NCBI GenBank assembly: GCA_964421955.1
Contig: CAYQYU010000001.1
Location: 64,001-128,000, forward strand
Reading direction: 5' to 3'
DNA from: an uncultured archaeon
GTDB lineage: Archaea; Nanohalarchaeota; Nanosalinia; Nanosalinales; Nanosalinaceae
Length of the DNA stretch: 64,000 nucleotides
Shown here: piece after piece, positions 38,268 through 58,553 of the stretch
How the letters are laid out: each line of letters opens with the position of its first letter
Numbering within the stretch: the first letter of the stretch is position 1
The notes under the pieces: generated by a model
The model's database searches: none
The model's input: only the letters and a program-made list of their open reading frames with translations
What the model was told of the DNA's origin: nothing
Position numbers and translations under genes: made by a program

Positions 38268-38342
38268 AGCGGGGTAGAGCAGCCAGGAGTGCTCGTCGGG
38301 CTCATAACCCGGAGGTCCGTGGTTCAAATCCACGCCCCGCTA
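38268..38342 (+). tRNA. Initiator tRNA-Met(CAT)
   Basis: A1-U72 pair, GGG/CCC anticodon stem, CT-CAT-AA loop, TTCAAAT T-loop; TTTTATA box ~20 nt upstream. Confidence 0.95.
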
Positions 38343-38421
38343 AAACTTCTGAAAGTTTTATCATCATAAACCATTCAATGACTGGCTTTCAGCGCTTGAT
38401 CGAACTTAGCGCCTGAAGTTC

Positions 38422-38446
38422 GGTTCACTAATCCACGCCCCGCTAA
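38422..38446 (+). repeat. Direct repeat of tRNA-iMet 3' end
   Basis: GGTTCA(CT)AATCCACGCCCCGCTAA versus 38321..38343. Confidence 0.85.
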
Positions 38447-38571
38447 CGAACTTCTAGATTCGAAGACAGCGAGGTTTTCTGTAACCAGCAACCATTAGTT
38501 GCGGAAGTTTCGATCACTTTCAAATCATAGACCGGCGCCGTTTTAAATTCGAGTTTTTAGAATTTCTGGAC

Positions 38572-39003
38572 ATGATATCAGTATCTCATTTAATTTTTGG
38601 GCTTGCTCTGGCATATATTTTCGATAGGAGGCTTGTTACAGCGTCTATTTTCTCTATCGTGCCTGATTTCGATGTCACTTTTGACTTCCTTTATCCTTTT
38701 GTCCACCGAGGAATCATGCATTCGATGCTCGCCGCCGGTTTTTTCAGCCTCCTGACCTATATAGGGACTGAGGACCAGTTCTCGGCAGAAAGCTGCGCTA
38801 TAGGCTACATATCCCATCTTGCGCTCGACACTCTTACTCCTTCAGGCGTCCCGCTTCTCTTCCCTCTATCAAACAGTTTCTCGCTCTCCTTAACCTATGC
38901 AAACAGCCTAAAGTTTAATTCAGCGATAATAGCCCTTTCAGTAGGACTTATGCTTGTAAAGAAGAATACTGAGGTCTTCAGACCGTTTTTAAAAATTCTA
39001 TGA
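38572..39003 (+). CDS. YdjM/DUF457-like membrane-bound metal-dependent hydrolase
   Basis: SH...PDFD...HRGIMHS...SHLALD.LT..GVPLLFP. Confidence 0.85.
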   Translation: MISVSHLIFGLALAYIFDRRLVTASIFSIVPDFDVTFDFLYPFVHRGIMHSMLAAGFFSLLTYIGTEDQFSAESCAIGYISHLALDTLTPSGVPLLFPLSNSFSLSLTYANSLKFNSAIIALSVGLMLVKKNTEVFRPFLKIL

Positions 39004-39163
39004 GCTTTTCGAGGTTGTCTGGAACCCGATCCGTTAACTTAAATAAAGGTTGTGAAGAAGGAAATTGGTAAGGCGCAGCATCGAGACACTCGATGTTGCT
39101 AAAAGCAATATTTCTCGAGAGAGAAATTTGCGGGGGAAGGGACCAGATAGAGGGTCTCAATTA

Positions 39164-39517
39164 ATGGAGAAAATAGGAAACGTCATAATTCGGACGATGG
39201 AAGATCTGTCAGGCATAGCAACGAATGGCTCAGCCCATATAAGGATCAACAAGGATATATGCGAACCCGAGAAGTTCCGGCACCTCTTCAACCATTTCTC
39301 CCGCGGAACAATTCTTGAACGCCTGGACCTCAATGTCGAGCCTCTTGAAACACGGCTTAAATGCGGCTGCGGTCATGAAGAAGCAGTCAACGATGACCAT
39401 TCCGGATACAAGAAATGCCCTTCATGCGGCCGCTTCGCGGAAGTCCAGGACAACACCTACGAACTCGTGAGGCCGGATCCCTCCAAAGTAGGGAAGAGAA
39501 GAAGCATCCGGTTCTAG
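39164..39517 (+). CDS. HypA-like zinc-ribbon protein lacking the MHE motif
   Basis: F...SRGTILE...L.VE......CGCG...CPSCG pattern; likely start ATG 39164. Confidence 0.6.
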   Translation: MEKIGNVIIRTMEDLSGIATNGSAHIRINKDICEPEKFRHLFNHFSRGTILERLDLNVEPLETRLKCGCGHEEAVNDDHSGYKKCPSCGRFAEVQDNTYELVRPDPSKVGKRRSIRF

Positions 39518-39601
39518 AGCACACTTAAAAAATTCTCGCATCCTCCTCACTATATCCCATGTCGGTTAGCTCTGCTAACCGTCTCTTTGCTCAAAGTTTG
39601 T

Positions 39602-39735
39602 GGGCCGGTAGCTCAGTCTGGCAGAGCGCGAGGCTCTTAAACACCTCAAGTCTCCGCAGGAGACGAGGACCCAGAAAATCTCCGATTTTCGATAGAGATA
39701 CCTCGTCGTCGTGGGTTCAAATCCCATCCGGCCCG
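39602..39735 (+). tRNA. tRNA-Lys(CTT) with 60-nt intron at 37/38 (39640..39699)
   Basis: GGGCCGG/CCGGCCC acceptor, CGAGG/CCTCG stem, CT-CTT-A|A; CTCT pairs with intron AGAG (BHB central helix). Confidence 0.93.
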
Positions 39736-39749
39736 AGATTTGATATCCT

Positions 39750-39796
39750 CCAGAAAATCTTCGATTTTCGTCTGGGTTCAAATCCCATCCGGCCCG
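39750..39796 (+). repeat. Copy of tRNA-Lys intron hairpin plus tRNA 3' end
   Basis: 39750..39770 matches 39671..39691 at 20/21; 39773..39796 is identical to 39712..39735. Confidence 0.92.
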
Positions 39797-39831
39797 CATC
39801 TCTTTTACCATTTGATACCTAAATTCTGGTT

Positions 39832-40314
39832 ATGGCCGAGCTATTCACCTTGATCGCGGCGGCCCTAATGATTCTTGCGGTCGTCGGAAGCTTTGTACCC
39901 ATGATGCCCGGAGCGCTGCTTTCCATACTTGGTATCCTGGTCTACTGGTATGGCACAGGGTTCACACGTCCAAGCACATTTTTCCTGGTCGCCTTCATAC
40001 TAACCAGTATCTTTGCGGTGGCGATGGACTATTTTTCCGGCGTGATAGCAGCGAAGGCCGGAGGAGCATCCGCCCGGACATCTATCATAGCAGGAGCTGT
40101 TGGATTCCTGCTCTTCTTCGTGCTCGGCCCTCTCGGTATCCTGTTAGGAGTGGTGGGAACCGTGTTCATCCGGCAATACCTCCTCACCGGAGAGAAAGAC
40201 CGGAGTCTCAGGACCGCGGCCTATTCTGCCGCCGGCGTACTTGGATCCGCAATAATCCAGTTCCTGGTGACCGTATCGCTCCTGGTGGCTTTCCTGATTA
40301 CTCTCGTAGTCTAG
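39832..40314 (+). CDS. DUF456-family membrane protein
   Basis: GSFVPMMPG...DYFSG...AKAGGAS...GPLGILLG pattern. Confidence 0.85.
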   Translation: MAELFTLIAAALMILAVVGSFVPMMPGALLSILGILVYWYGTGFTRPSTFFLVAFILTSIFAVAMDYFSGVIAAKAGGASARTSIIAGAVGFLLFFVLGPLGILLGVVGTVFIRQYLLTGEKDRSLRTAAYSAAGVLGSAIIQFLVTVSLLVAFLITLVV

Positions 40315-40351
40315 AGAAAAACTATTATCTTACAGCCGGGAAAAATGATCT

Positions 40352-40843
40352 ATGGAGACCCCGGAATCAGAATTCGAGGCAGTTGCCACTCTCTGTTACA
40401 TCATAGAAGACGGCCGAGTGCTCTTAATCTACAAGAAACGCGGAATTGGAGAAGGACTGTATAACGGGCCTGGCGGCAAAGTAGAGCAACATGATGATTC
40501 CCCGAGAGAGGCAGCGAAAAGAGAGGTGAAAGAAGAGGTCAGGGTTGAGGTCGAAGATCTGGAGAAGGTCGGGGAACTCGAGTTCTACTTTGGAGACAGA
40601 CCATTCATGTATGGACATATTTTCAAGACCTCTGAATACGAAGGTGAACCAGAAGAAACTGAAGAGGCGCGGCCGGAATGGTTCGAGATTGGATCACTAC
40701 CCTACGACCAGATGTGGGAAGACGACCGCTACTGGATGCCCAAGATGTTCAACGGCAAGAAAATCAAAGCGAAGTTCCAGTTTGACGAAGACGGTGACGA
40801 ATTTTACTGGGAGAAATCCGCCATCGGAAAGGCCAGCTTCTAG
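40352..40843 (+). CDS. Nudix hydrolase, 8-oxo-dGTPase (MTH1-like)
   Basis: KKRGIGEGLYNGPGGK, AAKREVKEE Nudix box, PYDQMWEDDRYW. Confidence 0.9.
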   Translation: METPESEFEAVATLCYIIEDGRVLLIYKKRGIGEGLYNGPGGKVEQHDDSPREAAKREVKEEVRVEVEDLEKVGELEFYFGDRPFMYGHIFKTSEYEGEPEETEEARPEWFEIGSLPYDQMWEDDRYWMPKMFNGKKIKAKFQFDEDGDEFYWEKSAIGKASF

Positions 40844-42771
40844 ACCATTTTCTCCGGGAAACCATTTACCTTTGTCTCGTATTCGCCGCCTTCGCCCGCG
40901 GCATTGAAACCGTATTCACGGGAGAGATCGATCAATTCCTCCACAGACTCCTCATCAAGGACTCTTCTCTCCCAGCTTTCTTCCAGTCCGCGTGCCGCGA
41001 CCGAGGTAATCTCGACTTCAAAGCCTTCTCTCACAAGCCACCTCATGTAGTGTTCCTGATCTTCCTGCCAGAGCGGTGCGAAGACCTTCAGGCCAATTTT
41101 TTCCGCAACTTTCTCGACCCGGTCCCTCTGGTAGGTCGATGCGAGAGCTCCTGCAACAACTCCTTCGACATCGTATTCCTCTCTGGCCTTTCTCAGGACT
41201 TTTTCCAGGTCTTCCAGCTCTTCTTCTTTCTCTCCCTCCGTTTCCTGGACTACTAGAGGGATACCCAGTTCCCCCGCCTGTCTCTCGAGTTCTGAAAGTT
41301 GTTTCTTCGAGTCGAACATGTAGCTGTCCCTGTTCTCCGACCGGAGTGTCACCAGGCAGGCGATCTCATTGTTGCGGCGGCGCATCCTGTAAAGTGCGGC
41401 ATTCGAATCTTTGCCCCCAGAGGTCAACACAGCTAAACGGTGATTTGGCTCCTCTCTCAGCGAGTTGAGATACCCCTGCTTGGAATCGAAGCCATTATCT
41501 TTTGCGAGCCTCTCGACCGCCTTGTCGAAGTTGCTTCCATACTGGGCTGCGGTCTTCTCCCTCCAGGCCACGTCTTCAGGCACCCCCAGCTCCTCAGCCG
41601 CCTTCCTCAAAACGTATTTCCGGTAGCCCTCCTTCATCTTGTAATCCTCCGGAACCATAAGTGCGTGCTCCACCAGGTCGTGGTCAAGGAATAGAACCCT
41701 GAGTTCGTAGCTGTTCCTCATAGACACGACATCGTCCCTGTAAAGGTCGCGATGGAAAAGCGACCTCAGTCCCGAGAGACATTCGCGGTTCAGGTAGTTC
41801 TCCATTCTCGAGTACCCGGCGTAGAGCTGCTCCGACCCCAGGCCAGACATCACAACTTTCTCGTCGCCGTTCAAGGCCAGGTGGAACGGTAGCGCCACTC
41901 CCAGCTTCACTACCGATGTTGAAGAGATCCAGTCCGCAAGTCTAGGTAGCACAGTCTCGACCTCTTCAAGCGAGGCATCGTAACTCCTGAGTTCCAATTC
42001 CATCTCTTCAGCAACTTTCTCCGCCCATTCTGTATCTCTGGGCGCATCAACATTACCGTGTTGTATTCCGGCAGTGTAGCAGGTGAAATCTCTCTCGAGT
42101 TCCTTTAGTGCGGCCGCAACCATAGTGGAGTCCACTCCGCCTGAGAACAATAATGCAAGTTCTCCATCTGGAACTCGTTTCTCAACTGCCTCCAGGAATT
42201 TTTCCTTTATCTCCTCGGCAGCCTCTTCTATACTTTTACCTTCTTTGACATCTGTCTCGAAGAACTCTCGCTTCCGGAAGCTTAATTCTCCTGACTCTAT
42301 ATCGTACCTGAGTACCAGTCGTGGATGTAGCTCCTGGGCCTCCAGGCCTTCCTTTTCCAGCGCCTGTTTCTCGGAGGCGAAGGCAAAAGGCTTCCTGGAA
42401 TACCAGACAGGTTTCACCCCCAGGAGGTCACGGGCCAGTATAACCTCTCCATTATTAAAATAGGCGAAAGCATAGACACCATCAAGCAACTCAAGCGCAT
42501 CTTTACCCCTGGCTTCGAGCAGCTCCAGGAGGAGTTCAGCGTCATTTCTTACATCCAGGCTGTATTCTTCCGCTAGCTCCTGCCAGTTGTATATCTCGCA
42601 GTTCGCCACCAGCGTTCCTTCTCTCTGGAGAGGCTGTTCGACATCTCCCACAACAGGATGAAGCACATGACCCAGCGGAAATTCGCCGCCATCAATTTTG
42701 CTGGAGCCACCCCTGTGTTTGAGGTGCTTCGCCAGTTTCTCTGCCTTTTCGCCACCCGTTATGCCGCACAT
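40840..42771 (-). CDS. Fusion of AsnB-like asparagine synthetase and diphthine-ammonia ligase (Dph6)
   Basis: MCGI N-terminal Cys, ANCEIYN, LFSGGVDS; C-terminal SGGKDS, SYMF, PLW, GEGGEYET. Confidence 0.88.
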   Translation of the reverse strand: MCGITGGEKAEKLAKHLKHRGGSSKIDGGEFPLGHVLHPVVGDVEQPLQREGTLVANCEIYNWQELAEEYSLDVRNDAELLLELLEARGKDALELLDGVYAFAYFNNGEVILARDLLGVKPVWYSRKPFAFASEKQALEKEGLEAQELHPRLVLRYDIESGELSFRKREFFETDVKEGKSIEEAAEEIKEKFLEAVEKRVPDGELALLFSGGVDSTMVAAALKELERDFTCYTAGIQHGNVDAPRDTEWAEKVAEEMELELRSYDASLEEVETVLPRLADWISSTSVVKLGVALPFHLALNGDEKVVMSGLGSEQLYAGYSRMENYLNRECLSGLRSLFHRDLYRDDVVSMRNSYELRVLFLDHDLVEHALMVPEDYKMKEGYRKYVLRKAAEELGVPEDVAWREKTAAQYGSNFDKAVERLAKDNGFDSKQGYLNSLREEPNHRLAVLTSGGKDSNAALYRMRRRNNEIACLVTLRSENRDSYMFDSKKQLSELERQAGELGIPLVVQETEGEKEEELEDLEKVLRKAREEYDVEGVVAGALASTYQRDRVEKVAEKIGLKVFAPLWQEDQEHYMRWLVREGFEVEITSVAARGLEESWERRVLDEESVEELIDLSREYGFNAAGEGGEYETKVNGFPEKMV

Positions 42772-42806
42772 GATCTAGAAAAAGGGTTGAAGCTTTTTGT
42801 AGCAAA

Positions 42807-43595
42807 TCACTCCGCACTATAATCTGGACCGAAGTCGCTGATCTCTCGCTGGGACCTGTCGAGAGCCTCGTAACTTGCGATCACGTCCTCCATCTCGACC
42901 TCGACAAATTCGAGATCGCGGTCCTCAAGATATGCGAGCACTTTTTCAGTCATCTTCGGCGCAACCAGAATGCCACGGATGTCTCCCCGGAACTCCTCTT
43001 CTATCTCATCCACGTAGCGCTGGAGCTGGAGGACGGTGTTGTAGTCAGGGTTTCTCTTGACCTCTATTACAACGTAGTTGTCGCTCTCGTCGCGGGCGAA
43101 AACATCTATGAAGCCAGCAGGTGTCTCTCGCTCCCTCTCGATCACTTTCAGGCCATCCTCGACTATCTCCGGTTTCTCCTCTATTGACTCATGGATATCC
43201 ACTTCGTGGCCACGAATCTTCAGCTCAGACCTGTCGACCATTTTGTCGACAGAGAGAAAATCAATCTCCTCAAACCTTATCTCGACAAGTTCCTCGGGAC
43301 TGGAACGCCGGGCCTCAACTACAAGCTCGCCGTATTCCTCATCCACCTTTACATTCCAGGAGTCGACCTCGGGCTGCCAGTTCTTCGGCTGGTAGTTGTC
43401 AGGGCCATGGACGAGTAACGCAGAGTCCTGCTTCTTGATGACGATGCGTTCTCCTCTATCCAGTTTCGACTTCGCGCGGCCCTGGTAGTTCACTGAGCAT
43501 AGACCGTTGACCTGGACCGTGTACTTGCGGGAGAGGTATTCTTGCAGCATCCGCTGGGCCTCCTCAAAATCTGGCTCTCGAGCGAACTCTTCCAT
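42807..43595 (-). CDS. nucS: Mismatch endonuclease NucS/EndoMS
   Basis: CSVNYQGRAKS, PKNWQP, GFIDVFARD...VIEVKR, QLQRY. Confidence 0.93.
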   Translation of the reverse strand: MEEFAREPDFEEAQRMLQEYLSRKYTVQVNGLCSVNYQGRAKSKLDRGERIVIKKQDSALLVHGPDNYQPKNWQPEVDSWNVKVDEEYGELVVEARRSSPEELVEIRFEEIDFLSVDKMVDRSELKIRGHEVDIHESIEEKPEIVEDGLKVIERERETPAGFIDVFARDESDNYVVIEVKRNPDYNTVLQLQRYVDEIEEEFRGDIRGILVAPKMTEKVLAYLEDRDLEFVEVEMEDVIASYEALDRSQREISDFGPDYSAE

Positions 43596-43664
43596 GCCTC
43601 TGGGATGCCGGGGGAATTTTTTAGCTGTAACCTTTAACTTTCCAGGAGATCAAAACCACAATTT

Positions 43665-44336
43665 ATGGATTACAGGATCAAAGACCTACCTCAGGAAGAG
43701 CGGCCAAGAGAAAAACTGGAGAAACACGGCGCATCTTCACTTACAGAGGTTGAGCTTCTCTCAATCGTGTTAAGAACGGGAATTCCCGGCAAAAATGTGA
43801 AGGAGCTGGCTGGCGAGATACTGAACAGTTACTCCCTGCAGAATCTGGCAAACCGATCGCTTGAGGACCTGAAGGGCTTCGAAGGCGTATCAAAAGTGAA
43901 GGCCGGACAGCTCAAAGCAGTGGGAGAACTCGCGAGAAGAATGCAGGTCGAGAAAAGGGAGAGGATTGAGTCCTTCTCAGACGTGAAAGCCAGAGTGGAG
44001 GATATGAAGTATCTCGAAGAGGAGCGGCTGCGTGTCTTCTACCTATCCTCAGGGAATGAGATTTTATCTGAAGAGAATTTCGAAGGCGGCATTGATTCGG
44101 TCAACATCGACTTCCGGAAACTGTTCCGGGAGGCCATAGGCTCAGGTGCATCCGCGGTAGTCTTGACACATAACCACCCCTCCGGAAACCCGGACCCAAC
44201 CCCACAGGATATCGAGGTCACAGAAGAGCTGATCGAGGCCGGAAACAGGCTCGGAATAAAGGTGCTGGATCACGTAATTATCGGAGAAACCGCCTCAAGC
44301 ATGAAGGCCTCTGGAGCCGCAGATTTCACGTCCTAG
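43665..44336 (+). CDS. radC: RadC-family JAB domain protein
   Basis: ERPREKL...ELLSIVLRTG, HNHPSGNPDPTPQD, LDHVII. Confidence 0.93.
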   Translation: MDYRIKDLPQEERPREKLEKHGASSLTEVELLSIVLRTGIPGKNVKELAGEILNSYSLQNLANRSLEDLKGFEGVSKVKAGQLKAVGELARRMQVEKRERIESFSDVKARVEDMKYLEEERLRVFYLSSGNEILSEENFEGGIDSVNIDFRKLFREAIGSGASAVVLTHNHPSGNPDPTPQDIEVTEELIEAGNRLGIKVLDHVIIGETASSMKASGAADFTS

Positions 44337-44435
44337 ACACCCCCTTTAATACCTTTCGGTTAGACGTCACCACCTATTTAAAGATTACCCGTGTCTTGGT
44401 AGTTGTAGCTTTCTCAGGGAGGGATTCAAAAATAG

Positions 44436-44679: not shown

Positions 44680-46137
44680 ATGCAAGAAGAATTCCTCTCA
44701 CAGCTTATAGAACAGAATCTCGTAAAACATCAGATTGATTCTTACAACCGGTTTGTAGAAGAGCGGATCCAGTCAATTCTTAACGAGGTCGGAGAAATCA
44801 AGCCTGACCTTCCCGAGGGAGAGGAGCTTGTAATAAAGATAGTTGATGTCGATGTCAAGCGACCACATATTAACGAGGCCGACGGATCGGTAAGAAGGAT
44901 CACGCCTAAAGAGGCGAGGATGCGTGACCTGACCTATTCTTCCGAGATCAAGGTTACGATGACCCCAATTTTCGAGGGGGTGCAGCAGGAGAGCGAGGAA
45001 GTTACCATCGGACGTATTCCGGTGATGGTCGGAAGCGACCTGTGCTGGACTGCCGACATGACAGAGGAAGAACTGAGGGAAGCGGGCGAAGACCCCGATG
45101 ATCCCGAGGGATATTTCATAATTAACGGTTCCGAGAAGACAATTATCGCGATGGAAGAGTTCGCGAACAATAAGCCGGTTTACCAGCAGGACGATGATGA
45201 GCAGATCTGCCGCATCAATTCGGAGCAGAGCGGTTACGTACAGCGACATGTTCTGAGGCGAGACGACGACATTGTCAACATTTCATTCGCGAACGTCAAG
45301 AAGACGCCGGCGGTTGCACTTGTCAGAGCTCTTGGCTACGAGACCGACCAGGAGATCGTCGAGGCGATCGGTGAAGAGTACGCCAGCGATATCTATCTGA
45401 ATATGTATGAAACTGATGCCAGCAACCAGGAAGAGGCCTACGAGTACGTTGCGAACAAGGCAGGGATCACCTCGGATATTGAAGAGCGGGTCGAAAGCAT
45501 TCTCGACGAGTACCTTCTGCCGCACCTGGGACAGGATCCGGAGTTCCGGGACGAGAAAGCGCAGTTCCTCGCGAACCTGATAAGAAATACTATAGCGCTC
45601 GGAAAGGGTGACATCGAGCAGGACGACATGGACCACTACGCTAACAAGAGGCTGAACCTTGCAGGAGAGCTACTCGAGATGCAGTTCAGGAGCGTCTTCC
45701 TCGGGAAATGGGGTCTGCTCGCACGCATGAAGTATAACTTCCGTAAATCTGCTAAGCGAGGTAGACTGCCTTCACTCCAGTCCACGATTGTCGCGGACAC
45801 ACTTACGAAGCAGATAATGGGTGCGATGGCGACAGGTAACTGGGTCGGGGGCCGCACAGGAATCTGCCAGAGACTCGACCGCGGAAACAGGATCAAGACC
45901 CTTTCCCACATGAGGAATATTGTGTCGCCGCTGTCAAGCGAAAGACAGCACTTTGAGGCACGTGATCTCCACCCGACACAGTGGGGGCGTGTCTGCCCTA
46001 TCAAGACACCGGAAGGTATGAACATCGGACTAAGAACCTACCTTGCTATGAGTGCCAACGTCTCCACGGGAATGAGCGAGATGGAGCGAAACTCCCTTAG
46101 AGCAAAACTGGAAGAAGAGGGTCTCGAAGCCCGGTAA
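44680..46137 (+). CDS. rpoB2: RNA polymerase subunit B'' (Rpo2N)
   Basis: QIDSYNRF, EARMRDLTYS, GYFIING, DHYANKRL, ARDLHPTQWGRVCP.KTPEG. Confidence 0.95.
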   Translation: MQEEFLSQLIEQNLVKHQIDSYNRFVEERIQSILNEVGEIKPDLPEGEELVIKIVDVDVKRPHINEADGSVRRITPKEARMRDLTYSSEIKVTMTPIFEGVQQESEEVTIGRIPVMVGSDLCWTADMTEEELREAGEDPDDPEGYFIINGSEKTIIAMEEFANNKPVYQQDDDEQICRINSEQSGYVQRHVLRRDDDIVNISFANVKKTPAVALVRALGYETDQEIVEAIGEEYASDIYLNMYETDASNQEEAYEYVANKAGITSDIEERVESILDEYLLPHLGQDPEFRDEKAQFLANLIRNTIALGKGDIEQDDMDHYANKRLNLAGELLEMQFRSVFLGKWGLLARMKYNFRKSAKRGRLPSLQSTIVADTLTKQIMGAMATGNWVGGRTGICQRLDRGNRIKTLSHMRNIVSPLSSERQHFEARDLHPTQWGRVCPIKTPEGMNIGLRTYLAMSANVSTGMSEMERNSLRAKLEEEGLEAR

Positions 46138-46232
46138 ACTGATACTATGATAATGAACCCAAACCTCGAAACAAAGGTCACTTCGCCGCAGGCGAATGTG
46201 GCACAGATGATGAAACTCTCTAGGTGAGTTTC

Positions 46233-48035
46233 ATGACGAATGTATTCCTTGACGGCGAGCTTATCGACGAAATCGAATCTCCCGACGAGATCAGAGATGC
46301 AATTATAGAGAGACGGCGTGAGGGCGAACTAGAGAAAGAAATATCCGTCTATTACGCAGAGGACAAGGACGAGCTCCGAATCAATACGGACTCGGGAAGG
46401 GTCCTGAGACCTGTAGTTATCGTTGAAGACGGAGAGCCGAGGCTCACAGACGAGCAGCGCGAGCAGCTTGAAGCAGGAGAAATAAGTCTCGAGGATCTTG
46501 AAGAGGAGGGAATAATTGAATACCTCGATGCAGAAGAAGAGGAAAATGCGTATGTGGCAATGAACGACGAGGAAGTGACTGAAGATCATACACACATGGA
46601 GATCGATCCCGCGATTACACACGGCCTCTCGGCTTCGCTTGTAGTATACCCGGAACACAACAGAGGGGACCGTGTCAACTTCGGCGCAAAGATGAGCGGC
46701 CAGGGAATCGGGATGTACTCCCGGGAGTTCCACCAGAGATTCGATACTAACGCAAATATCCTGACATACGGCCAGCAGCCTATCGTGGGAACGCAGACCT
46801 ACGATACACTGGTCGGGAAGCACCCGATCGGCCAGAACATGGTCGTCGCGCTCGCATCTTTCGACGGCTACAATATCGAGGACGCAGTAATTATGAACAA
46901 GGCGTCAATCGAGCGGGGTATCGCAAGATCCACCTATATCCGTACCTACAAGACCGAGGCACAGAGGTTCTGGGGCGGACAGAAGGACGAGATCGAGACT
47001 CCTGACAAGGACGTCCGTGGATACAGAAACGAGGAAGCGTACCAGCACCTCGATGAAGACGGAATTATCAACCCCGAGACCGACGTTGACTCAGACGCCG
47101 TACTTGTAGGAAAGACCTCTCCCCCAAAGTTCCTAGGATCGGGAGGAGGCGAAGAAGTCAAGATGGGTCTCGCGGAGAGAAGAGAGACCTCTCTGACGGT
47201 AAGGCACGGGGAAAAAGGCAAGGTCGACAAGATAATGGTATCGGAGACCGGAGATGGCGACAAACTGATCAAGATGAAGCTCCGTGAATACAGGATTCCG
47301 GAACTCGGCGACAAGTTCGCGACACGGCACGGCCAGAAAGGAGTTATCGGAATGATCGCTCCCGAGGAGAACATGCCGTTCACAAAACAGGGAATAACAC
47401 CCGACATAATTCTATCGACACATGCCATCCCGAGCCGTATGACCGTGTCACAGCTGATCGAGATACTCGCCGGCAAGGTGGGTGCTATGAGGGGCGACCC
47501 TGTAGACGGTACCGCCTTCCACAGCGAGGACAAGGAAGATCTCAAGGAAGAGCTGGAAGAACTCGGCTTCGAGAGCACCGGAAAGGAGACAATGTACGAC
47601 GGAGTAACAGGACAGGAGCTTGAAGCAGAAATAATGATCGGGCCAGGATACTACCTCAAACTCGACCACCAGGTCGGAGACAAGATTCACGCTAGGGCGC
47701 GCGGACCCGTGACGCTGCTCACAAAGCAGCCTACAGAAGGCCGTTCGCAGGAAGGTGGACTGAGACTCGGAGAGATGGAAAAGGACGTCTTCGTGGGCCA
47801 CGGCGCATCACTGCTTCTAAAGGAGAGATTCGGAGCAGACTCCACCGGCATCAATGTCTGTGAGAACTGTGGAGAGATAGGTGTCGAAGATCGTGAAGAG
47901 AACCGCACCTACTGCCCTAGCTGTGAAGCGGGAGACCTGGAGGAGGCGGAAGTTCCGCACGCATTCCTGCTCCTGCTTAACGAGCTAAAATCCATGATGA
48001 TGGACGTCGAGATCGGACTTGAAGAGGAGGCGTAA
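46233..48035 (+). CDS. rpoB1: RNA polymerase subunit B' (Rpo2C)
   Basis: GDKFATRHGQKG, PSRMT, GGLRLGEMEKD; AGGTGA SD 5 nt before ATG 46233. Confidence 0.96.
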   Translation: MTNVFLDGELIDEIESPDEIRDAIIERRREGELEKEISVYYAEDKDELRINTDSGRVLRPVVIVEDGEPRLTDEQREQLEAGEISLEDLEEEGIIEYLDAEEEENAYVAMNDEEVTEDHTHMEIDPAITHGLSASLVVYPEHNRGDRVNFGAKMSGQGIGMYSREFHQRFDTNANILTYGQQPIVGTQTYDTLVGKHPIGQNMVVALASFDGYNIEDAVIMNKASIERGIARSTYIRTYKTEAQRFWGGQKDEIETPDKDVRGYRNEEAYQHLDEDGIINPETDVDSDAVLVGKTSPPKFLGSGGGEEVKMGLAERRETSLTVRHGEKGKVDKIMVSETGDGDKLIKMKLREYRIPELGDKFATRHGQKGVIGMIAPEENMPFTKQGITPDIILSTHAIPSRMTVSQLIEILAGKVGAMRGDPVDGTAFHSEDKEDLKEELEELGFESTGKETMYDGVTGQELEAEIMIGPGYYLKLDHQVGDKIHARARGPVTLLTKQPTEGRSQEGGLRLGEMEKDVFVGHGASLLLKERFGADSTGINVCENCGEIGVEDREENRTYCPSCEAGDLEEAEVPHAFLLLLNELKSMMMDVEIGLEEEA

Positions 48036-52122: not shown

Positions 52123-52153
52123 GACTTTTCACATTCTCCAGCTAAAAGGTTTT

Positions 52154-52462
52154 ATGGAAGAAGAGATACGTTTCTGCCCCAACTGCGGGTCCACCAATGT
52201 CGAGCCCGACACTTCCAATGCGGCGTATGTGGGTGAAGCCGGGGGCAACCCCAACACCTGGCGCTGCAACGACTGCGAATACACTGGTATAATGCCGCAG
52301 AATTCTCAATCCGGGGAGGACTTTGACGAAGAAATAGATTTCGAACCCCCAGAGAAATACCCCCGGGAAGATATTGGGTTCGGAAAGGCCTACCTCAAGT
52401 ACCTGCTTTACATTGCGCTACCTTTACTGCTGATATACCTCCTCTACATTACACTTATTTGA
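52154..52462 (+). CDS. Zinc-ribbon protein with C-terminal TM anchor
   Basis: CPNC...CNDC; hydrophobic C-terminus; likely start ATG 52154. Confidence 0.7.
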   Translation: MEEEIRFCPNCGSTNVEPDTSNAAYVGEAGGNPNTWRCNDCEYTGIMPQNSQSGEDFDEEIDFEPPEKYPREDIGFGKAYLKYLLYIALPLLLIYLLYITLI

Positions 52463-52483
52463 GGCTGGAAACAACTGGATTCT

Positions 52484-52725
52484 ATGAACGGCCTAAAACG
52501 GGAGATAGAAGATATCGAGCGCTTCGAAGAAATTCTCCACATCCTCTTCGACCAGGGCTTCAGGGCACTACTTGACAGGCTTGATCTACTGCATCATATC
52601 CCTGTGGCGGAACGGCTCAGGAAGCCCGGGAAAAAGACGACCAGACCTGGTATCCCGGGAAGCAGCTGTTCGCTCTTGGAATCGCCGAGCTGGTTTTAGC
52701 TGCGATCATGGTCAGGCACAGCTAG
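52484..52725 (+). pseudogene. Probable internally deleted AarF/UbiB(ABC1)-family remnant
   Basis: N-terminal [16 protein letters not shown] resembles the UbiB start; hydrophobic tail [25 protein letters not shown] follows in a different frame. Confidence 0.5.
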
Positions 52726-52769
52726 CCAAGGTCCACGTATATAAAAAGTTTAACCTGAATCTTCCGGGT

Positions 52770-53192
52770 ATGGGTCTATACAACGCACGCAAGCTGAGAA
52801 AAAAGAGGCAGGAGTTCCGCTGGAGCGATATCGACTACAAGCGGAGAATGGAGAACCTGAAGGAGAAAGCAGACCCTCTAGAAGGTTCACCGCAGGGCCG
52901 TGGAATCGTTCTAGAAAAGCGGGTTATCGAGGCGAAGCAGCCCAACTCCGCGCTGAGAAAATGTGTGCGTGTACAGTTGATCAAGAATGGCAAACAGCTG
53001 ACCGCATTCGTCCCAGGAGACGGCGCGATCGACTACATCGACGAGCACGACGAAGTTCTAATTGAAGGTATCGGTGGTGCAAAAGGAGGACCGAAAGGAG
53101 ATATTCCAACGGTCCGGTACCAGGTAGTAAAAGTCAACGGCGTCTCACTCGAAGAACTTGTAGAGGGTCGCGCGGAGAAACCAACGAGGTAA
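52770..53192 (+). CDS. rps12: 30S ribosomal protein uS12
   Basis: [26 protein letters not shown]; true start ATG 52770. Confidence 0.97.
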
Positions 53193-53198
53193 GACAGG

Positions 53199-53825
53199 AT
53201 GAGCGACGCAGCAAAGATAGAGGTACAGGACGAACTTCTGACGATGGGACGATGGGACGCCTCCGAGGTCAACATCGAGGACGAGGGACTTCTCCGTTAC
53301 ATCAACCTGGAAAATATTCTTGCGCCCAGATCCAAAGGCCGGCACGTCGAAAAACAGTTCTACAAGGCAGATGTGCCGGTAGTCGAGCGCCTCCTGAACA
53401 GAATGTACGTCGCCGGTCACAGGGGAAACAAGCACATGATCACCTCCGGAAGAAACACAGGATCGTCCAGGAAACTCTGGAGAACAATCGAAGAGGCTTT
53501 CGAAACAATAGAGGAAGAAACCTCGGAGAACCCCATCCAGGTACTTGTCGATGCGATTGAGAACTCCGCACCAAAAGAAGAGGTAGTCACATACCAGAGA
53601 GGAGGAGTACGCGCCAGGAAAGCAGTACTGGTCTCTCCACAGAGGAGGGTAGATCTTGCTCTGAGACTTCTGGTGCAGGGAGCATATGAAGACCGGCTCT
53701 CCGCCTCGAACGATGCGGTAGAAACTCTTGCAAGCGAGATCATCGAGGCCGCGAACGGCAGCTCGGAAGTAAGAGCCGTCCGCGAAAAAGAAAGAAGAGA
53801 GCGGGAAGCAGAAGGCGCACGGTAG
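53199..53825 (+). CDS. rps7: 30S ribosomal protein uS7
   Basis: VVERLLNRM, NPIQVLVDAIENSAP.EE, SPQRRVDLALR. Confidence 0.97.
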   Translation: MSDAAKIEVQDELLTMGRWDASEVNIEDEGLLRYINLENILAPRSKGRHVEKQFYKADVPVVERLLNRMYVAGHRGNKHMITSGRNTGSSRKLWRTIEEAFETIEEETSENPIQVLVDAIENSAPKEEVVTYQRGGVRARKAVLVSPQRRVDLALRLLVQGAYEDRLSASNDAVETLASEIIEAANGSSEVRAVREKERREREAEGAR

Positions 53826-53918
53826 TAACTATACTGCCCAGTTCCGGAACACCCGTTTCCACTATCCATTTTTAAAACTTAGAACTGCTTTCAAGCATAT
53901 AATCGAGGTAACTAAATA

Positions 53919-56105
53919 ATGTCCGACAAAGAGCTTGACGCAATAAAGGGAGTAATTGAAGATCCTGAACACATCAGAAATATTGCCATCGCCGCACACA
54001 TCGACCACGGGAAAACAACGCTTACAGATAATTTACTTGCGAGAGCGGGCATGATATCGGAGAAGCTGGCGGGAGATCAGCGTTTCATGGATTTCGACGA
54101 GCAGGAAGCCGAGCGAGGGATAACGATTTACAGCGCAAACATTTCGATGGTCCACGAGTTCGACGGCGATGACTACCTGATCAACCTTATCGACACGCCA
54201 GGCCACGTTGACTTCGGAGGAGACGTCACACGGGCAATGCGTGCAGTTGACGGTGTAGTGGTTCTCGTGGACGCAGTTGACGGCGTCATGCCACAGACAG
54301 AGACCGTCATGAAACAGGCTCTCCAGGAAGGCGTCAAGCCAGTACTATTCATCAACAAGGTTGACCGCCTTATAGAAGAAATGCAGCTGACCCCCGAGGA
54401 GATGCAGGAGCGTTTCACCAAGATCATCAGGGAAGTCAACACCGCGCTGAGAAAGTACGCTGACGAGGAGACCGCTGAAGAATGGAAGATGACAGTAAAC
54501 AACGGAACTGTCGCGTTCGGTTCTGCGCTGAAGAACTGGGCGATCAGCGTACCTTACATGCAGGAAACAGGAATCAGCTTTGGAGACATAATTGACTACG
54601 TAAATGACGGCGATCACGAAGGTCTGAGAGATGAGGCGCCGATCGAAGAGGTAGTCCTCGACATGGTCGTACAACACCTGGTCAACCCTCAAGAAGCCGC
54701 ACAGGACAGGATCAAGCACGTCTGGCCGGGCGACCCTGACTCGGATGTCGGGACTGCGATGCAGAAACAGGATCAGGACGGACCTCTCGTGGGTGTTGTC
54801 ACGAACGTCGAGGATGACGAACATGCGGGAACCATTGTAACAGCACGGCTATTCTCGGGAACGGTAAATGAGGGAGATGAACTCTACGGAATCGGCTCCC
54901 AGAAAACCGAGCGGGCGCAGCAGGTCGGAATTTACTCTGGACCAAGAAAACTCACAGTTGATTCAGTTCCGGCGGGCAACATCGCCGCGATCACAGGCCC
55001 TGACTTTTCCACGGGCGAAACATTCATCCTGGAAGGCCAGGAGGAGATCCAGCCGTTCGAGCAGATCGAGCACGTCTTCGAACCTGTTGTCACAAAGTCA
55101 ATCGAGCCGAAGAGAACCTCGGATCTTCCAAAACTTATCGAGACGCTGAGGAAGAGGGCTAAGGAAGACAATACTATCAAGGTAGATATTGACGAAGAGA
55201 CTGGAGAAACGCTTGTATCCGGACTTGGAGAGCTCCACATCGAGGCCAAGATTGAGAGACACCTCGAGGAGAAAGGAATCGACATCAACGTTTCAGAGCC
55301 TATCGTCGTTTTCCGTGAAGGAGTCTCGAAATCCTCGCCACACATGACAGGAAAGTCGCCGAACAGGCACAACAACCTCGAAATTTCGGTAGAGCCCATC
55401 TCTGATGAACTCAGGACATTCCTGAAGGAGGACTACGAGGACGTCCAGAGACAGGCAGACGACGACACCGAGGTAAGGGACGCACTCGTCGAGGCAGGAA
55501 TGGACAAGGATGACGCGGACAACATCATGGACGTGTACGAAGAAAACCTGTTCATCAACGATTCGAGAGGAATCAAGAATCTAAGGGAAATCAAGGAGTA
55601 CCTCGTTGACGCTTTCCACGAGTTCTGCGATGAGGGGCCTCTCGCCAACGAGCCTGTAATCGGCTTCATGGTGAGGCTTCACGATGCGAAGCTCCACGAG
55701 GACGCGATCCACAGAGGTCCTGCGCAGATGATCCCTGCCACAAAAGATGCGATGAAAAACGGCTTCCTGGAGGCAGATCCACAGCTCATCGAGCCGAAAC
55801 AGATCATCCGGATCGACACCCCGACAAGCCAGATGGGAGACGCCATGACAGAGGTCTCTAACAGGAGGGGCGATGTCGAGAACATGGAGGAGGAAGGCGA
55901 CGCTGCAATCCTGACATGCAAGCTACCTGTAGAGGAACTGTTCGGATTCGAGGCCGCACTCAAATCGGCTACGGGTGGAAAAGGATTCTTCAACCCGAAG
56001 GAGCTGATCTTTGAGCCGCTTCCGATGAATCTCCAGGAAGAGAAGATCATGGAGATCCGGGAGCGGAAGGGCATGAAGAAAGAGATGCCGAAGGTCGAGG
56101 AGTAG
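53919..56105 (+). CDS. fusA: Elongation factor aEF-2
   Basis: AHIDHGKTT, DTPGHVDF, NKVD, HEDAIHRGPAQ diphthamide loop. Confidence 0.98.
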   Translation: MSDKELDAIKGVIEDPEHIRNIAIAAHIDHGKTTLTDNLLARAGMISEKLAGDQRFMDFDEQEAERGITIYSANISMVHEFDGDDYLINLIDTPGHVDFGGDVTRAMRAVDGVVVLVDAVDGVMPQTETVMKQALQEGVKPVLFINKVDRLIEEMQLTPEEMQERFTKIIREVNTALRKYADEETAEEWKMTVNNGTVAFGSALKNWAISVPYMQETGISFGDIIDYVNDGDHEGLRDEAPIEEVVLDMVVQHLVNPQEAAQDRIKHVWPGDPDSDVGTAMQKQDQDGPLVGVVTNVEDDEHAGTIVTARLFSGTVNEGDELYGIGSQKTERAQQVGIYSGPRKLTVDSVPAGNIAAITGPDFSTGETFILEGQEEIQPFEQIEHVFEPVVTKSIEPKRTSDLPKLIETLRKRAKEDNTIKVDIDEETGETLVSGLGELHIEAKIERHLEEKGIDINVSEPIVVFREGVSKSSPHMTGKSPNRHNNLEISVEPISDELRTFLKEDYEDVQRQADDDTEVRDALVEAGMDKDDADNIMDVYEENLFINDSRGIKNLREIKEYLVDAFHEFCDEGPLANEPVIGFMVRLHDAKLHEDAIHRGPAQMIPATKDAMKNGFLEADPQLIEPKQIIRIDTPTSQMGDAMTEVSNRRGDVENMEEEGDAAILTCKLPVEELFGFEAALKSATGGKGFFNPKELIFEPLPMNLQEEKIMEIRERKGMKKEMPKVEE

Positions 56106-56107
56106 AA

Positions 56108-56443
56108 TCAGTAATCCTCTGGCTCGAACCCCAGCAGTAGATACTCCTCAACAGTCTCCATTAACTCTTCAAATCTGTATACTGCTTCCAGCTCCTCCTC
56201 TGACTCATCGTAGAGAGGATTTTCCAGGATCGCTGTAGCAGTACGATAATGCGCATTTGCTCTCTCAAGAACTGTCCAGAACCCGGGACCAGCAAGAGGT
56301 TGTCCCACACGGTAGAACTCATTTGCCGCCTGGATCCGTTCGTTATCATCTCTAAGATTTTCAATAGTGGACTCCATTACCGGATCAAAACCTTCCTCTA
56401 TGTCGTCAACGCCCACAGACAGCCGTTTCTCTGCAATAAACAA
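56108..56443 (-). CDS. Hypothetical acidic protein, antisense between fusA and tuf
   Basis: Acidic ORF fills the gap; start codon uncertain (TTG). Confidence 0.55.
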   Translation of the reverse strand: MFIAEKRLSVGVDDIEEGFDPVMESTIENLRDDNERIQAANEFYRVGQPLAGPGFWTVLERANAHYRTATAILENPLYDESEEELEAVYRFEELMETVEEYLLLGFEPEDY

Positions 56444-56525
56444 AAAACCTTCCCGAGGAAATCATGACACCCTTTTTAAAGTTTAACCGGTTAATTCGAG
56501 AATATACGCATCAGGTGACAAAATA

Positions 56526-57794
56526 ATGGCTGACAAACCACACATTAACCTAGTATTCATCGGTCACGTCGACCACGGAAAGTCCACCACTATCGGACGG
56601 CTACTGTGGGAGACCGAAAACCTACCACAAGAGGAAATGAGGAAGCTAGAGGAAGCAGCGGAAGAAGCAGGTAAAGAGACCTTCTCATTCGCGTTCGCAA
56701 TGGACAACCTGGAAGAAGAACGTGAAAGAGGAGTCACAATCGACCTTGCACACCAGGATTTCACAACTGACAACTACTACTTCACGATCATCGACGCACC
56801 TGGACACCGCGACTTCATTAAAAACATGATTACAGGTGCTTCACAGGCTGACGCCGCAGTTCTAGTTGTCGCGGCAGACGACGGAATTCAGCCACAGACC
56901 AAGGAGCACGCCTACCTCGCAAAGACTCTGGGCATCGACCAGCTCATCGTGGCGGTCAACAAGATGGACCTGGAGGACTACGACGAGGGAGCTTACAACG
57001 ACCTGAAAGACGAAGTATCCGAGATGCTCCAGGGCGTAGGATTTGACACATCCAAGATTCCATTCGTACCTGTCTCTTCATTCGAGGGAGAAGGCGTAGT
57101 GGAAGAAAGCGACGAGACAGGATGGTACGACGGACCAACTCTGTACGACGCACTCGACGACCTTGAGGAGCCAGAGAAGGCAGTTGATCTGCCACTCAGG
57201 ATTCCTGTACAGGACGTCTACAAGATTTCCGGTATCGGAGCAGTCTCTGTCGGACGTGTCGAAACCGGAGAGATTTCCCAGGGAGACGACGTAACCTTCA
57301 AGCCCGCGGATGTCGGTGGCGAAGTCAAGACCATCGAGATGCACCACGAGGAAGTTGACTCCGCGGAACCAGGGGATAACATCGGATGGAACACAAGAGG
57401 AGTAGGATCTGACGACATCAAGAAAGGAGACGTCGCAGGACCAGCAGACAACCCTCCAACAGTTGTCGACTCCTTCGAGGCGCAGGTCATCGTCCTCAAC
57501 CACCCGAACGTCATCTCGGAAGGTTACACACCGGTATTCCACGTCAACACGGCTCAGGTCTCATGCACATTCACAGACCTGAAGAAGACCATGAACCCGA
57601 AGACAGGTGAAACGATCGAGGAAGAACCTGACTACATTAAACAGGGGCAAGCAGCGATCGTAGAGATTACACCGCAGCAGCCGCTCGTCATCGAGGAGAA
57701 CGACGACATTCCACAGATGGCACGGTTCGCAATCAGGGACATGGGACAGACTGTCGGCGCAGGAATGGCCCTCAGCGTCGAAGAGAAGGAATAA
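56526..57794 (+). CDS. tuf: Elongation factor aEF-1alpha
   Basis: [31 protein letters not shown]. Confidence 0.98.
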
Positions 57795-57796
57795 AC

Positions 57797-57840
57797 CTCT
57801 TCTCATCCTTATTTCTTACTTTCTCTTTTCCCTCTATCCT
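57797..57840 (+). terminator. Pyrimidine/T-rich tract after tuf, probable terminator
   Basis: Near-pure C/T run immediately after the stop codon. Confidence 0.5.
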
Positions 57841-57876
57841 AAACCATTTATAAGAGTTAATTTTCATCGTTAGGCT

Positions 57877-58185
57877 ATGCAGAAGGCGCGTGTAAAACTC
57901 CGGAGCACTGACCAGGAGAAGATCGCTGAACTGGCGGATGAAATTGTGGATATCGGGAAGGAGTACAACGCCAAGGTTTCAGGTCCGGTACCTCTCCCTA
58001 CACAGACGCTCAAGATTCCGACCCGGAAAGCTCCTGATGGGGAAGGCTCAGAAACGATCGAGCGGTACGAAATGCATGTTCACAACCGGCTCATCGACAT
58101 CAAGGAAAGCGAGCGAGCGCTTCGACAGGTTATGCGTGTCCACGTCCCAGAGGGCGTCGACATCGAAATCGAGCTTACAGAATAA
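57877..58185 (+). CDS. rps10: 30S ribosomal protein uS10
   Basis: GPVPLPT, RKAPDGEG, H.RLIDI; TTTATAA box ~25 nt upstream suggests a leaderless mRNA. Confidence 0.97.
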   Translation: MQKARVKLRSTDQEKIAELADEIVDIGKEYNAKVSGPVPLPTQTLKIPTRKAPDGEGSETIERYEMHVHNRLIDIKESERALRQVMRVHVPEGVDIEIELTE

Positions 58186-58236
58186 TTTTCTCTGCTGAAC
58201 CCAATTTTTCTAACAAGTCATAGATGATAGTTGAAT

Positions 58237-58259
58237 CGCCGGGACTGGGATTTGAACCC
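58237..58259 (-). repeat. Direct repeat of tRNA-Ser 3' end
   Basis: 23 nt identical to 58311..58333. Confidence 0.92.
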
Positions 58260-58310
58260 GAAGCTCGCAGAACTGGAGCTTCTACTCTCAAATCCCGACT
58301 AGGCGTGAAA

Positions 58311-58399
58311 CGCCGGGACTGGGATTTGAACCCAGGAGGGCCGTCACGGCCCACCGGTTCTCAAGACCGGCACTTTTAGCCAGACTCAGTCATCCCGGC
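58311..58399 (-). tRNA. tRNA-Ser(TGA)
   Basis: GCCGGGA/TCCCGGC acceptor, CCGGT-CT-TGA-GA-ACCGG, long variable arm, G discriminator. Confidence 0.94.
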
Positions 58400-58553
58400 A
58401 GATTGTAAATCTGCTGTGGATACAGAAACTCTTCAGAGTTTCGCATCCCGGCAGTAATAGAGCGCTCGGACTATAGAATTTAGCCTGTGGAAAGTTTAAA
58501 TTAGGGAAGGTATAGCCAAGAAATTTAGACTTCTAGAACAAAAAAAAATTAAC

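Follow-up and report, generated by a model that had tools for sequence, protein, structure and literature searches.

Integration of archaeal elements into tRNA genes leaves direct repeats of the tRNA end, with the integrase gene beside the reconstituted tRNA, as described in PMC3293823, where a 44-bp repeat is given for SSV1. For the haloarchaeal virus SNJ2, PMC5861418 describes a 14-bp core located at the tRNA-Met 3′ end, and tyrosine integrases are encoded by nanohaloarchaeal spindle viruses according to a preprint (bioRxiv 10.1101/2025.02.15.638363). In a 64,000-nt stretch of DNA (the window) from an uncultured nanohaloarchaeon of the family Nanosalinaceae, we found that every tRNA gene is followed by a short cassette composed of filler, a GAA...TTC hairpin and a repeat of the tRNA 3′ end. 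These cassettes resemble the tRNA-targeting archaeal integrative elements (SSV-, pNOB8- and SNJ2-type tyrosine integrases) in their terminal tRNA repeat, the insert lying between a complete tRNA and a tRNA fragment; the repeats comprise 17–24 identical bases at the three window tRNAs, 3′ repeats are common in this genome, 5′ repeats also occur, and integrase genes lie directly behind tRNAs. Unlike those elements, the cassettes carry a gene-less insert of 30–100 bp that is palindromic and holds an inverted T-loop copy, the same filler occurs at at least 10 tRNAs, and no cargo-bearing parent was found. Bacterial cis-mobilizable elements (CIMEs) have flanking attachment (att) sites and no integrase, are presumably mobilized in trans and can stand in tandem at one tRNA. 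The cassettes share the att-like flanks, the missing integrase, the presumed mobilization in trans and the tandem arrangement; however, CIMEs are of kilobase scale with a recognizable autonomous origin, whereas the cassettes, smaller by one to two orders of magnitude, are so far parentless.

The window corresponds to positions 64001–128000 of contig C1 of its source genome (G000; 0.92 Mb, 27 contigs, 98.8% complete), and both ARAGORN and Rfam (Rfam 15) gave three tRNA genes in it. All three (3/3: iMet, Lys-CTT and Ser-TGA) are followed by filler (36–86 nt), by a perfect GAA...TTC hairpin and, 0–3 nt past the hairpin by direct reading of the sequence, by a copy that spans the last bases of the T-stem 5′ strand (G52/G53) through the discriminator, that is, about 22 terminal tRNA bases. 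An earlier reading of this DNA from its letters alone (the sequence-only reading) had reported such a hairpin with a duplicated T-arm and acceptor at the same three genes, which we confirmed; its position for the iMet hairpin was correct, and that for the iMet copy was one base off. The three loci are composed as follows.

38268–38342, + strand: tRNA-iMet (CAT), intron-less (ARAGORN; Rfam RF00005, 58.4 bits)
38343–38401, + strand: iMet filler, opening with the module AAACTTCTGAAAGTTTTATCATCA and holding a second hairpin (sequence, module comparison)
38402–38421, + strand: iMet hairpin GAACTT-N8-AAGTTC, abutting the copy (sequence)
38422–38445, + strand: iMet copy GGTTCACTAATCCACGCCCCGCTA, degenerate, with T-loop, T-stem 3′ strand, acceptor 3′ strand and discriminator (sequence)
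39602–39735, + strand: tRNA-Lys (CTT) with a 60-nt anticodon-loop intron (Rfam; ARAGORN intron mode)
39674–39690, + strand: hairpin GAAAATC-TCC-GATTTTC in the Lys intron (sequence)
39736–39752, + strand: Lys filler, with the inverted T-loop piece GATTTGA at 39737–39743 (sequence; fold)
39753–39769, + strand: Lys trailer hairpin GAAAATC-TTC-GATTTTC (sequence)
39773–39796, + strand: Lys copy of T-arm and acceptor 3′ end, 24/24 identical (sequence)
58311–58399, − strand: tRNA-Ser (TGA), intron-less (ARAGORN; Rfam)
58283–58310, − strand: Ser filler, with the inverted T-loop copy GGGATTTGA at 58296–58288 (sequence; fold)
58260–58282, − strand: Ser hairpin GAAGCTC-N9-GAGCTTC, a module conserved family-wide (sequence, cross-genome comparison)
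58237–58259, − strand: Ser copy from T-loop to discriminator, 23/23 identical (sequence)
58425–58453, − strand: mirror-image 5′ cassette, 53 nt upstream of tRNA-Ser, repeating the initial 10 nt of the tRNA region (TGCCGGGATG, 58453–58444) and then showing the hairpin GAAACTC-TGAA-GAGTTTC (58442–58425)

The iMet copy has a T-loop longer by 2 bases (a 9-nt loop) and is identical at 17/17 positions from AATCC onward. The AAACTTCTGAAAGTTTTATCATCA module of its filler was also found in the Arg-TCT intron, behind the first Glu-TTC copy, and in the Lys-CTT trailer of G001, a single-contig relative with 36 tRNAs that belongs to a different genus of the same family. The Lys trailer hairpin agrees with the hairpin of the Lys intron at 20 of 21 bases, flanks included. 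CGCC in the Ser filler (58305–58302) complements the acceptor end GGCG, and the entire 77-nt Ser trailer recurs identically behind tRNA-Ser-CGA on contig C14. No Rfam family matched the cassettes at gathering score, the three tRNAs being the only matches within the window.

By-eye alignment of the cassettes across genomes revealed a common plan. A short spacer after the discriminator, often pairing back to the acceptor end (GGCG-TTTCA-CGCC) or T-rich, is followed by part of the T-loop and T-stem 3′ strand copied in inverted orientation (GG.ATTTGA[T/A]), then by a few bases and a hairpin with a GAA/TTC base, and finally by the direct copy, which starts 2–3 nt ahead of T54. Because of this direct-inverted-hairpin-direct order, the cassette is one long imperfect palindrome, bounded by an outer inverted repeat (GG.ATTTGA / TCAAATCC) in which the base facing the T-loop C is often mismatched (C, T or A). 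The hairpin stems vary among cassette types with full compensation (GAAGCTC, GAAAATC, GAAACTC, GAACTT, GAACTG and others). The predicted fold of the Ser cassette (−33.4 kcal/mol, z −4.5) was matched by 0/200 shuffles, and the whole Ser pre-tRNA gave z −5.7; the Lys cassette gave −16.6 kcal/mol (z −2.3), and the iMet cassette was not significant (z −1.2, 23/200 shuffles as good). The duplication is of variable length (22–38 nt), with its right edge of identity mostly at the discriminator and 12–15 nt past the tRNA end in three cases (L004/L098, L005/L029 and L059/L115). Strings of five T separate the tRNA from the cassette in L098 and at Ser-GGA of G001, indicating that a cassette need not be transcribed; T runs also come after several copies.

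For a genome-wide count, the final 26 nt of each tRNA (ARAGORN intron mode) were compared with their surroundings, and the best ungapped match within 400 nt was accepted at a score of at least 10. A downstream 3′-end copy was found at 10/37 tRNAs of G000 and 6/36 of G001, bearing out the recurrence suspected by the sequence-only reading, and because the upstream controls gave 0/37 and 0/36, chance is ruled out and the tRNA-end duplicates are real. Under a stricter test (at most 3 changes in 20 nt), 6/39 G000 tRNAs had copies, with two copies each at Ser-CGA and Glu-TTC. An assembly artefact is practically refuted, because single-contig genomes (G001 and others) show the same layout, as do 9 independent metagenome contigs. 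Positions 38277–40289, and hence two cassettes, are covered with zero differences by a 2013-nt Logan contig of run X1 (possibly the source sample); in run X4, a contig from another organism has an iMet 3′ end and, after 37 nt of filler with GGATTTGAA and a GAAAATC hairpin, a second T-loop. No empty site within the population was seen in contigs of four DNA runs from one study, in which coverage beyond X1 was mostly of tRNA bodies; no RNA run was among the matching sequencing runs listed. In practical terms, assemblies break at tRNA loci because of the cassettes, and tRNA finders can be misled by them. Several G000 contigs terminate in tRNA-linked repeats (the end of C3, the start of C8, and C17/C18), and a run of Ns lies behind a tRNA on C16. 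The 'tRNA-Glu CTC' called by ARAGORN (C2:72458–72600, −) starts within the gene, whose true start lies about 60 nt upstream and which has a D-loop intron by comparison with Glu-TTC, and the 'Glu TTC' call at C15:16301–16527 bears the Leu-TAA 3′ end.

The commonest cassette type has the core GG.ATTTGAT...A-GAAGCTCC-loop-GCGAGCTTC-GGGTTCAAATCC, a pattern present in 26 public stretches, 17 from a GTDB-wide scan and 9 from metagenome contigs. Nanohaloarchaea (Nanosalina, Nanohalobium, SG9 and others) are named for 16 of the 17 GTDB-wide stretches, the 17th being labelled 'uncultured archaeon'. All judgeable pattern matches (22/22) lie 21–36 nt behind the 3′ end of a tRNA on the same strand; four more at contig or locus ends were unjudgeable. 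The tRNAs that host the GAAGCTCC module across genomes are Ser-TGA/CGA/GGA/GCT, Arg-GCG/TCT, Leu-CAA/TAA, Tyr and iMet, and in each copy the bases past AATCC are those of the local tRNA itself, lineage-specific acceptor changes included. The loop of this core type is variable, and one version of it, AGTTCT, was met again at different tRNAs in several genera. Of 24 sampled genomes of the same family, 14 matched the window's Ser trailer across its hairpin, as did 1 of 16 from other families of the order. Viral contigs gave no match to the module pattern.

Cassettes are gained and lost within the family. Among orthologous tRNA-Ser-TGA loci, 12/28 have a 3′ copy and 16/28 do not, one of the negatives (L096) running into Ns, and at another such locus (L106) only GGATTTGAT remains. 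Arg-GCG and Leu-TAA have a cassette in G001 and none in G000, and the reverse is true of iMet. Decayed copies with substitutions and a 1-nt insertion were found in L069, L071, L074 and L075, and also at the iMet and Glu copies of G000. At C8:1–260 of G000, three tandem 111-nt units each comprise two hairpins and an Asp-like tRNA 3′ end, and further tRNA-end fragments follow the array within C8:1–400. The Asp-like unit is also found behind the 3′ end of tRNA-Arg-TCG at the C17/C18 junction, so that a copy may differ from the tRNA next to it; the G000 assembly has no called tRNA-Asp. Mirror-image duplicates of the 5′ end were detected at 4/39 tRNAs of G000 and 3/36 of G001, with none in the downstream controls. 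They consist of a copy of the first 10–15 tRNA nt, 53–91 nt upstream, followed by hairpin modules, and are located at 58425–58453 (−) in the window, at C3 ~75257 (Gln-CTG) and C14 ~19307 (Tyr) of G000, and at L045, L055 and L064 of G001; the weak member of the four in G000 is Asn, about 200 nt upstream. The Gln-CTG duplicate is alike in both genera.

The hairpin modules are not confined to cassettes. Most G000 tRNAs bear introns (42–190 nt), consistent with the disrupted tRNA genes described for DPANN archaea, including the nanohaloarchaeon SG9, in PMC5829648. Only about 6/36 tRNAs of G001 bear introns, and the intron load thus differs sharply between genera of one family. Sequence comparison indicated that introns and trailers of G000 are assembled from the same few modules, as follows.

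Shared module: GAAAATC-loop-GATTTTC
Shared module: GAAGCGA...GCTTCG
Shared module: GAACTGacagCAGTTC
Shared module: AACTTCTGAAAGTT[CT]GATCATCA plus a hairpin
Shared module: TGGTTACGCTC...ACGCAA
Shared module: the block CCTCAAG-hairpin-(G)GGGA

Within introns, the GAA...TTC hairpin lies about 8–9 nt ahead of the 3′ splice site; other hairpins precede several tRNA 5′ ends by 2–25 nt and the 16S 5′ end by about 50 nt. Modules may be nested, as in L117, where two hairpins lie within the GAAGCTCC loop, and in L092, L103/L017 and Arg-CCT of G000 an intron-like block separates the T-loop copy from the T-stem 3′ strand exactly at their boundary, the block of L103 sharing its architecture with the canonical intron of its own gene. 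Of the 64 hairpin base classes in G000, GAA...TTC has the most members (188/3621; class mean 57), with 67/188 lying in the 12.4% of the genome outside open reading frames (ORFs) of at least 120 aa (p ~2e-16) and 34 of the 188 inside a tRNA or within 350 nt of one. In the window, GAAGCTCC alone has 8 occurrences against 3.8 expected, with 7/100 shuffles reaching 8. As part of the explanation that we consider best, the modules would form a mobile or modular family of repeats, specific to this lineage, that fills tRNA introns as well.

The palindromes that the sequence-only reading had listed in the Lys intron, upstream of tRNA-Ser (58442–58425) and in the rpoB spacer are present, and one placed in the rpl3 leader was not located. 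The rpoB-spacer hairpin is the following feature.

46212–46232, + strand: perfect hairpin GAAACTC-N7-GAGTTTC, in the 95-nt spacer separating the split rpoB ORFs 44680–46137 and 46233–48035

Elsewhere in the genome, module clusters or single copies remote from called tRNAs were observed at C3:67570–67658, C15:18687–18733, C4:64780, C8:8569 and C10:26793, and these, none with an Rfam match at E up to 0.01, may flank undetected RNA genes; a search of 11 further hairpin-rich loci at the same threshold gave no family besides tRNA or rRNA. The sole tRNA splicing endonuclease of the genome (PF01974, 96.8 bits) is encoded at 35416–35697 (−), about 2.6 kb from the iMet cassette.

We also assessed the recombinases of G000. 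Four matches to the tyrosine integrase profile PF00589 were found, on C2, C6 and C7. None was on the contig of the window, in agreement with the sequence-only reading, which had seen no integrase in the window; of the enzymes that it suggested looking for elsewhere, tyrosine integrases are present, some directly behind tRNAs, and a Y1/HUH transposase was not found (Y1_Tnp, 0 matches). On C6, a Gly-TCC 3′ copy lies 625 bp behind tRNA-Gly (C6:62620), and 35 nt farther on is a 444-aa ORF with a PF00589 match (C6:62655–63989). An integrase ORF lies directly behind tRNA-Arg-GCG (C7:2243–3450), and a 106-aa integrase fragment directly behind tRNA-Leu-TAG (C2:58569–59032). The loci at C6:61863–64000, C7 and C2 look like integrated elements or their remains. 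The longer-range copies (Gly-TCC at C6:62620 and C21:268; Pro-TGG at C14:23003) start 2–3 nt ahead of T54 and end at the discriminator or a few nt past it, so that their edges are those of the cassettes. Matches to Cas1 (PF01867), Y1_Tnp (PF01797), the TnpB zinc ribbon (PF07282) and RVT_1 numbered zero in this 98.8%-complete genome; DDE, serine-recombinase and IS110-type families were outside the search.

Starting from the anatomy, distribution and turnover of the cassettes, the modules that they have in common with introns, and the integrases present in the genome, we tentatively favour, at rather less than even confidence, the reading that the cassettes, instead of being functional pieces of tRNAs, are cargo-less, att-like selfish DNA produced by T-loop-centred recombination, probably by trans-acting tRNA-targeting tyrosine integrases. 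An att-type origin is favoured because the cassette edges equal those of the longer-range duplicates, one of which lies beside an integrase ORF. The cassettes would be miniature, non-autonomous insertions of att type, made by site-specific recombination that centres on the near-universal T-loop GGTTCAAATCC; the direct repeat brackets a cargo-less filler of 30–100 bp comprising the inverted partial T-loop copy (GG.ATTTGA) and at least one GAA...TTC module. The likely enzymes would be the tyrosine integrases of elements infecting the lineage, acting in trans on tRNA genes. The non-functional distal copy could then serve as a further landing site, which would explain the arrays, the heterologous copies and the nested insertions, and filler and copies would afterwards decay or be lost. 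Both the making of the cassettes by an integrase and their movement as units are inferences. Of the four PF00589 matches, two fall in ORFs that come immediately after a tRNA or after a 3′ copy of one.

Several points weigh against an att-type origin. Neither cargo nor an integrase lies between the repeats in any of the 22 judgeable matches of the conserved type, and no cargo-bearing relative was found among the 26 genome and metagenome matches or the viral contigs, plasmid and phage collections being outside the search. A double-stranded circle of 75 bp is implausible as a recombination substrate. If a generic element recombined conservatively in the T-loop, the tRNA would end up with a foreign 3′ end. 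Normally, however, each of the two copies is that of the local tRNA, a state more reminiscent of a target duplication, and in the three cases given above the repeat extends 12–15 nt past the tRNA end. A scar model accounts neither for the inverted T-loop copy nor for a GAAGCTCC stem that is conserved across genera (14/24 family genomes), and the same modules are found in anticodon-loop introns, where the T-loop core is absent. For these points, a local mechanism offers the better explanation.

Such a local, integrase-independent duplication has a real, if minor, chance of being correct. Mobile or self-propagating hairpin modules resembling repetitive extragenic palindromic (REP) sequences, miniature inverted-repeat transposable elements (MITEs) or Rickettsia palindromic elements would insert beside or into hairpin loops, and the insertion itself, or template switching or slippage between the T-loop and a T-loop-like module end, would yield the order X–X′–hairpin–X, the right edge being variable. 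This accords with the direct-inverted-direct layout, with two direct copies that are both specific to the local tRNA and with a right edge that varies from 0 to +15 nt. It also accords with modules that nest (L117) or enter exactly at the junction of T-loop copy and T-stem 3′ strand (L092, L103/L017, G000 Arg-CCT), that are located in introns, leaders and the rpoB spacer as well as some 50 nt ahead of 16S, that form the commonest hairpin class with 67 of 188 members outside long ORFs, and that carry the AGTTCT loop behind different tRNAs in different genera. A transposase such as Y1_Tnp or TnpB, Cas1 or RVT_1 was not found in the genome, DDE families having been outside the search, and the slippage variant makes a dedicated transposase unnecessary; however, slippage predicts a second filler unit after the copy, which was seen only partly (L005, L004 and L059), and local duplication cannot give heterologous copies such as the Asp-like end behind Arg-TCG. 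To our knowledge, target duplications of 22–38 nt are unknown for classical transposases.

Known families of small palindromic repeats include REP sequences and bacterial interspersed mosaic elements (BIMEs) with their REP-associated tyrosine transposases (RAYTs), MITEs and Rickettsia palindromic elements. Like these, the modules are short multi-copy hairpins in a reduced genome that occupy non-coding spacers, lie inside RNA genes (here introns) and nest. Unlike the REP/RAYT and IS200/IS605-type systems, they are accompanied by no Y1/RAYT or TnpB gene, as judged from the PF01797 and PF07282 searches, and unlike palindromic repeat families generally, the cassettes are tied to tRNA ends, have a target duplication of 22–38 nt and show compensating stems instead of one consensus. 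MITEs are defined by terminal inverted repeats and a short, fixed target duplication; the cassettes have the outer inverted repeat, but their duplication is long and variable. Casposons insert at tRNA 3′ ends and Cas1 duplicates CRISPR repeats, with a duplication of 14–15 bp. The cassettes share with these systems the tRNA-gene 3′ end as target and the unusually long target duplication, whereas here no Cas1 was found in the genome, the duplication is at least 22 nt and casposon-type terminal inverted repeats are absent.

It is unlikely that the cassettes are functional pre-tRNA trailers, although several of their features would suit an RNA. Co-transcribed with the tRNA, a cassette would form a long hairpin in which the inverted piece pairs with the distal T-loop copy and is thereby kept off the real T-arm, and it could act as a terminator, as 3′ protection, as a processing signal or as a tRNA-like decoy. 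The strong Ser fold (z −4.5, and z −5.7 for the whole pre-tRNA), the conserved stem and flanks around the variable loop of the GAAGCTCC module, the fully compensated stem changes between cassette types and the T runs behind several copies are all consistent with this proposal. The copy moreover tracks lineage-specific changes of the acceptor stem, and by-eye reading indicated that altered bases of the Glu copy still form G–U pairs with the inverted piece. However, presence is patchy (12/28 Ser-TGA loci) and differs between genera for the same tRNA, copies bear indels and substitutions, the iMet fold is no better than shuffles (z −1.2), five-T runs stand ahead of some cassettes (L098, G001 Ser-GGA), and the outer stem frequently has a mismatch opposite the T-loop C. 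Rfam gave no match to the cassettes, and the standard tRNA processing set is present in G000 (an RNase P RNA candidate at 49 bits, below gathering score; RNase Z at 320 bits; EndA), so that no special processing route is called for; we rejected special tRNA processing as a motive on this ground. Of the origins that the sequence-only reading had offered, a miniature element or duplication mechanism at tRNAs fits the recurrent, modular, patchy and nested cassettes, whose duplicate tracks the local tRNA, whereas maintained decoys or functional trailers are at odds with decay and patchiness.

A T-loop intron, or alternative 3′ exon, in which the distal copy is used and the proximal copy is spliced out together with the filler, is very improbable. 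Introns in most G000 tRNAs, at least one of them in a D-loop (Glu-CTC), filler modules that equal intron modules, and a minimum free energy fold of the Ser pre-tRNA that pairs the 5′ acceptor strand with the distal copy would speak for it, but the proximal copy already gives a complete, normal tRNA. In addition, the distal copy of iMet has a 9-nt T-loop, the copies of Glu, L071 and L074 carry stem-breaking changes, heterologous copies exist, and no bulge-helix-bulge was seen by eye in sequences and folds at the putative boundaries, no dedicated motif search being part of this comparison. Chance similarity or an assembly artefact, to which the contig breaks at tRNA-linked repeats (C3, C8, C17/C18 and the N run on C16) might point, is virtually excluded by the empty upstream controls, the single-contig genomes, the metagenome contigs and the spanning Logan contig. 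Two further candidates were rejected. A mini-tRNA (acceptor stem, one arm and T-arm) fits the Ser cassette only partly and misfits Lys and iMet, and an origin from mature tRNA fragments disagrees with the findings that no copy ends in CCA and that some repeats overrun the tRNA end.

The inverted T-loop copy, the identity of filler and intron modules, the 5′ mirror duplicates and the family-wide distribution were overlooked by the sequence-only reading. That integration leaves tRNA fragments is already known (PMC9897764, PMC3293823). In the literature consulted, we found no description of a miniature, palindromic, family-wide cassette with intron-shared modules and a 5′ mirror form; supplementary tables, such as the SG9 tRNA list of PMC5829648, were outside this scope and might mention such cassettes. 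Gain of tRNA introns through integration of mobile elements is proposed as a model by Sugahara et al. 2012 (PMC3293823). The present system resembles intron-gain models in that intron families are common to different tRNAs, fragments lie beside tRNA genes and intron presence differs among close relatives, and differs from them in that the same modules serve both as spliceable introns and as cassette filler, at a 75-bp scale and throughout a family. Intron 'transposition' has reportedly occurred in Thermoproteales.

The origin of archaeal tRNA introns and tRNA fragments is an open question, and a 2026 preprint on Asgard tRNA introns states that 'how they arrive remains open' (10.64898/2026.10.13.758758). 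In this lineage, one set of hairpin modules is found in three states: as anticodon-loop introns, as cassette filler and as insertions inside non-functional T-loop copies. With genomes of about 1 Mb, cultivable members and clear gain and loss between genera, the lineage offers a compact system in which intron gain, integrase targeting and att remnants can be studied together. A bolder proposal, which we regard as rather doubtful but possible, is that the modules belong to a so far undescribed class of mobile hairpins that would be transposase-less and independent of reverse transcriptase and would home to the loops and ends of tRNA genes; insertion at 37/38 or in the D-loop would give spliceable introns, and insertion in or beside the T-loop, or at the 5′ end, would give terminal exon duplications. 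If the modules prove to be agents of intron gain, the significance of the cassettes would be considerably greater, and if they are mobile in the manner just proposed, the cassettes would be DNA-level snapshots of how archaeal tRNA introns and fragments originate.

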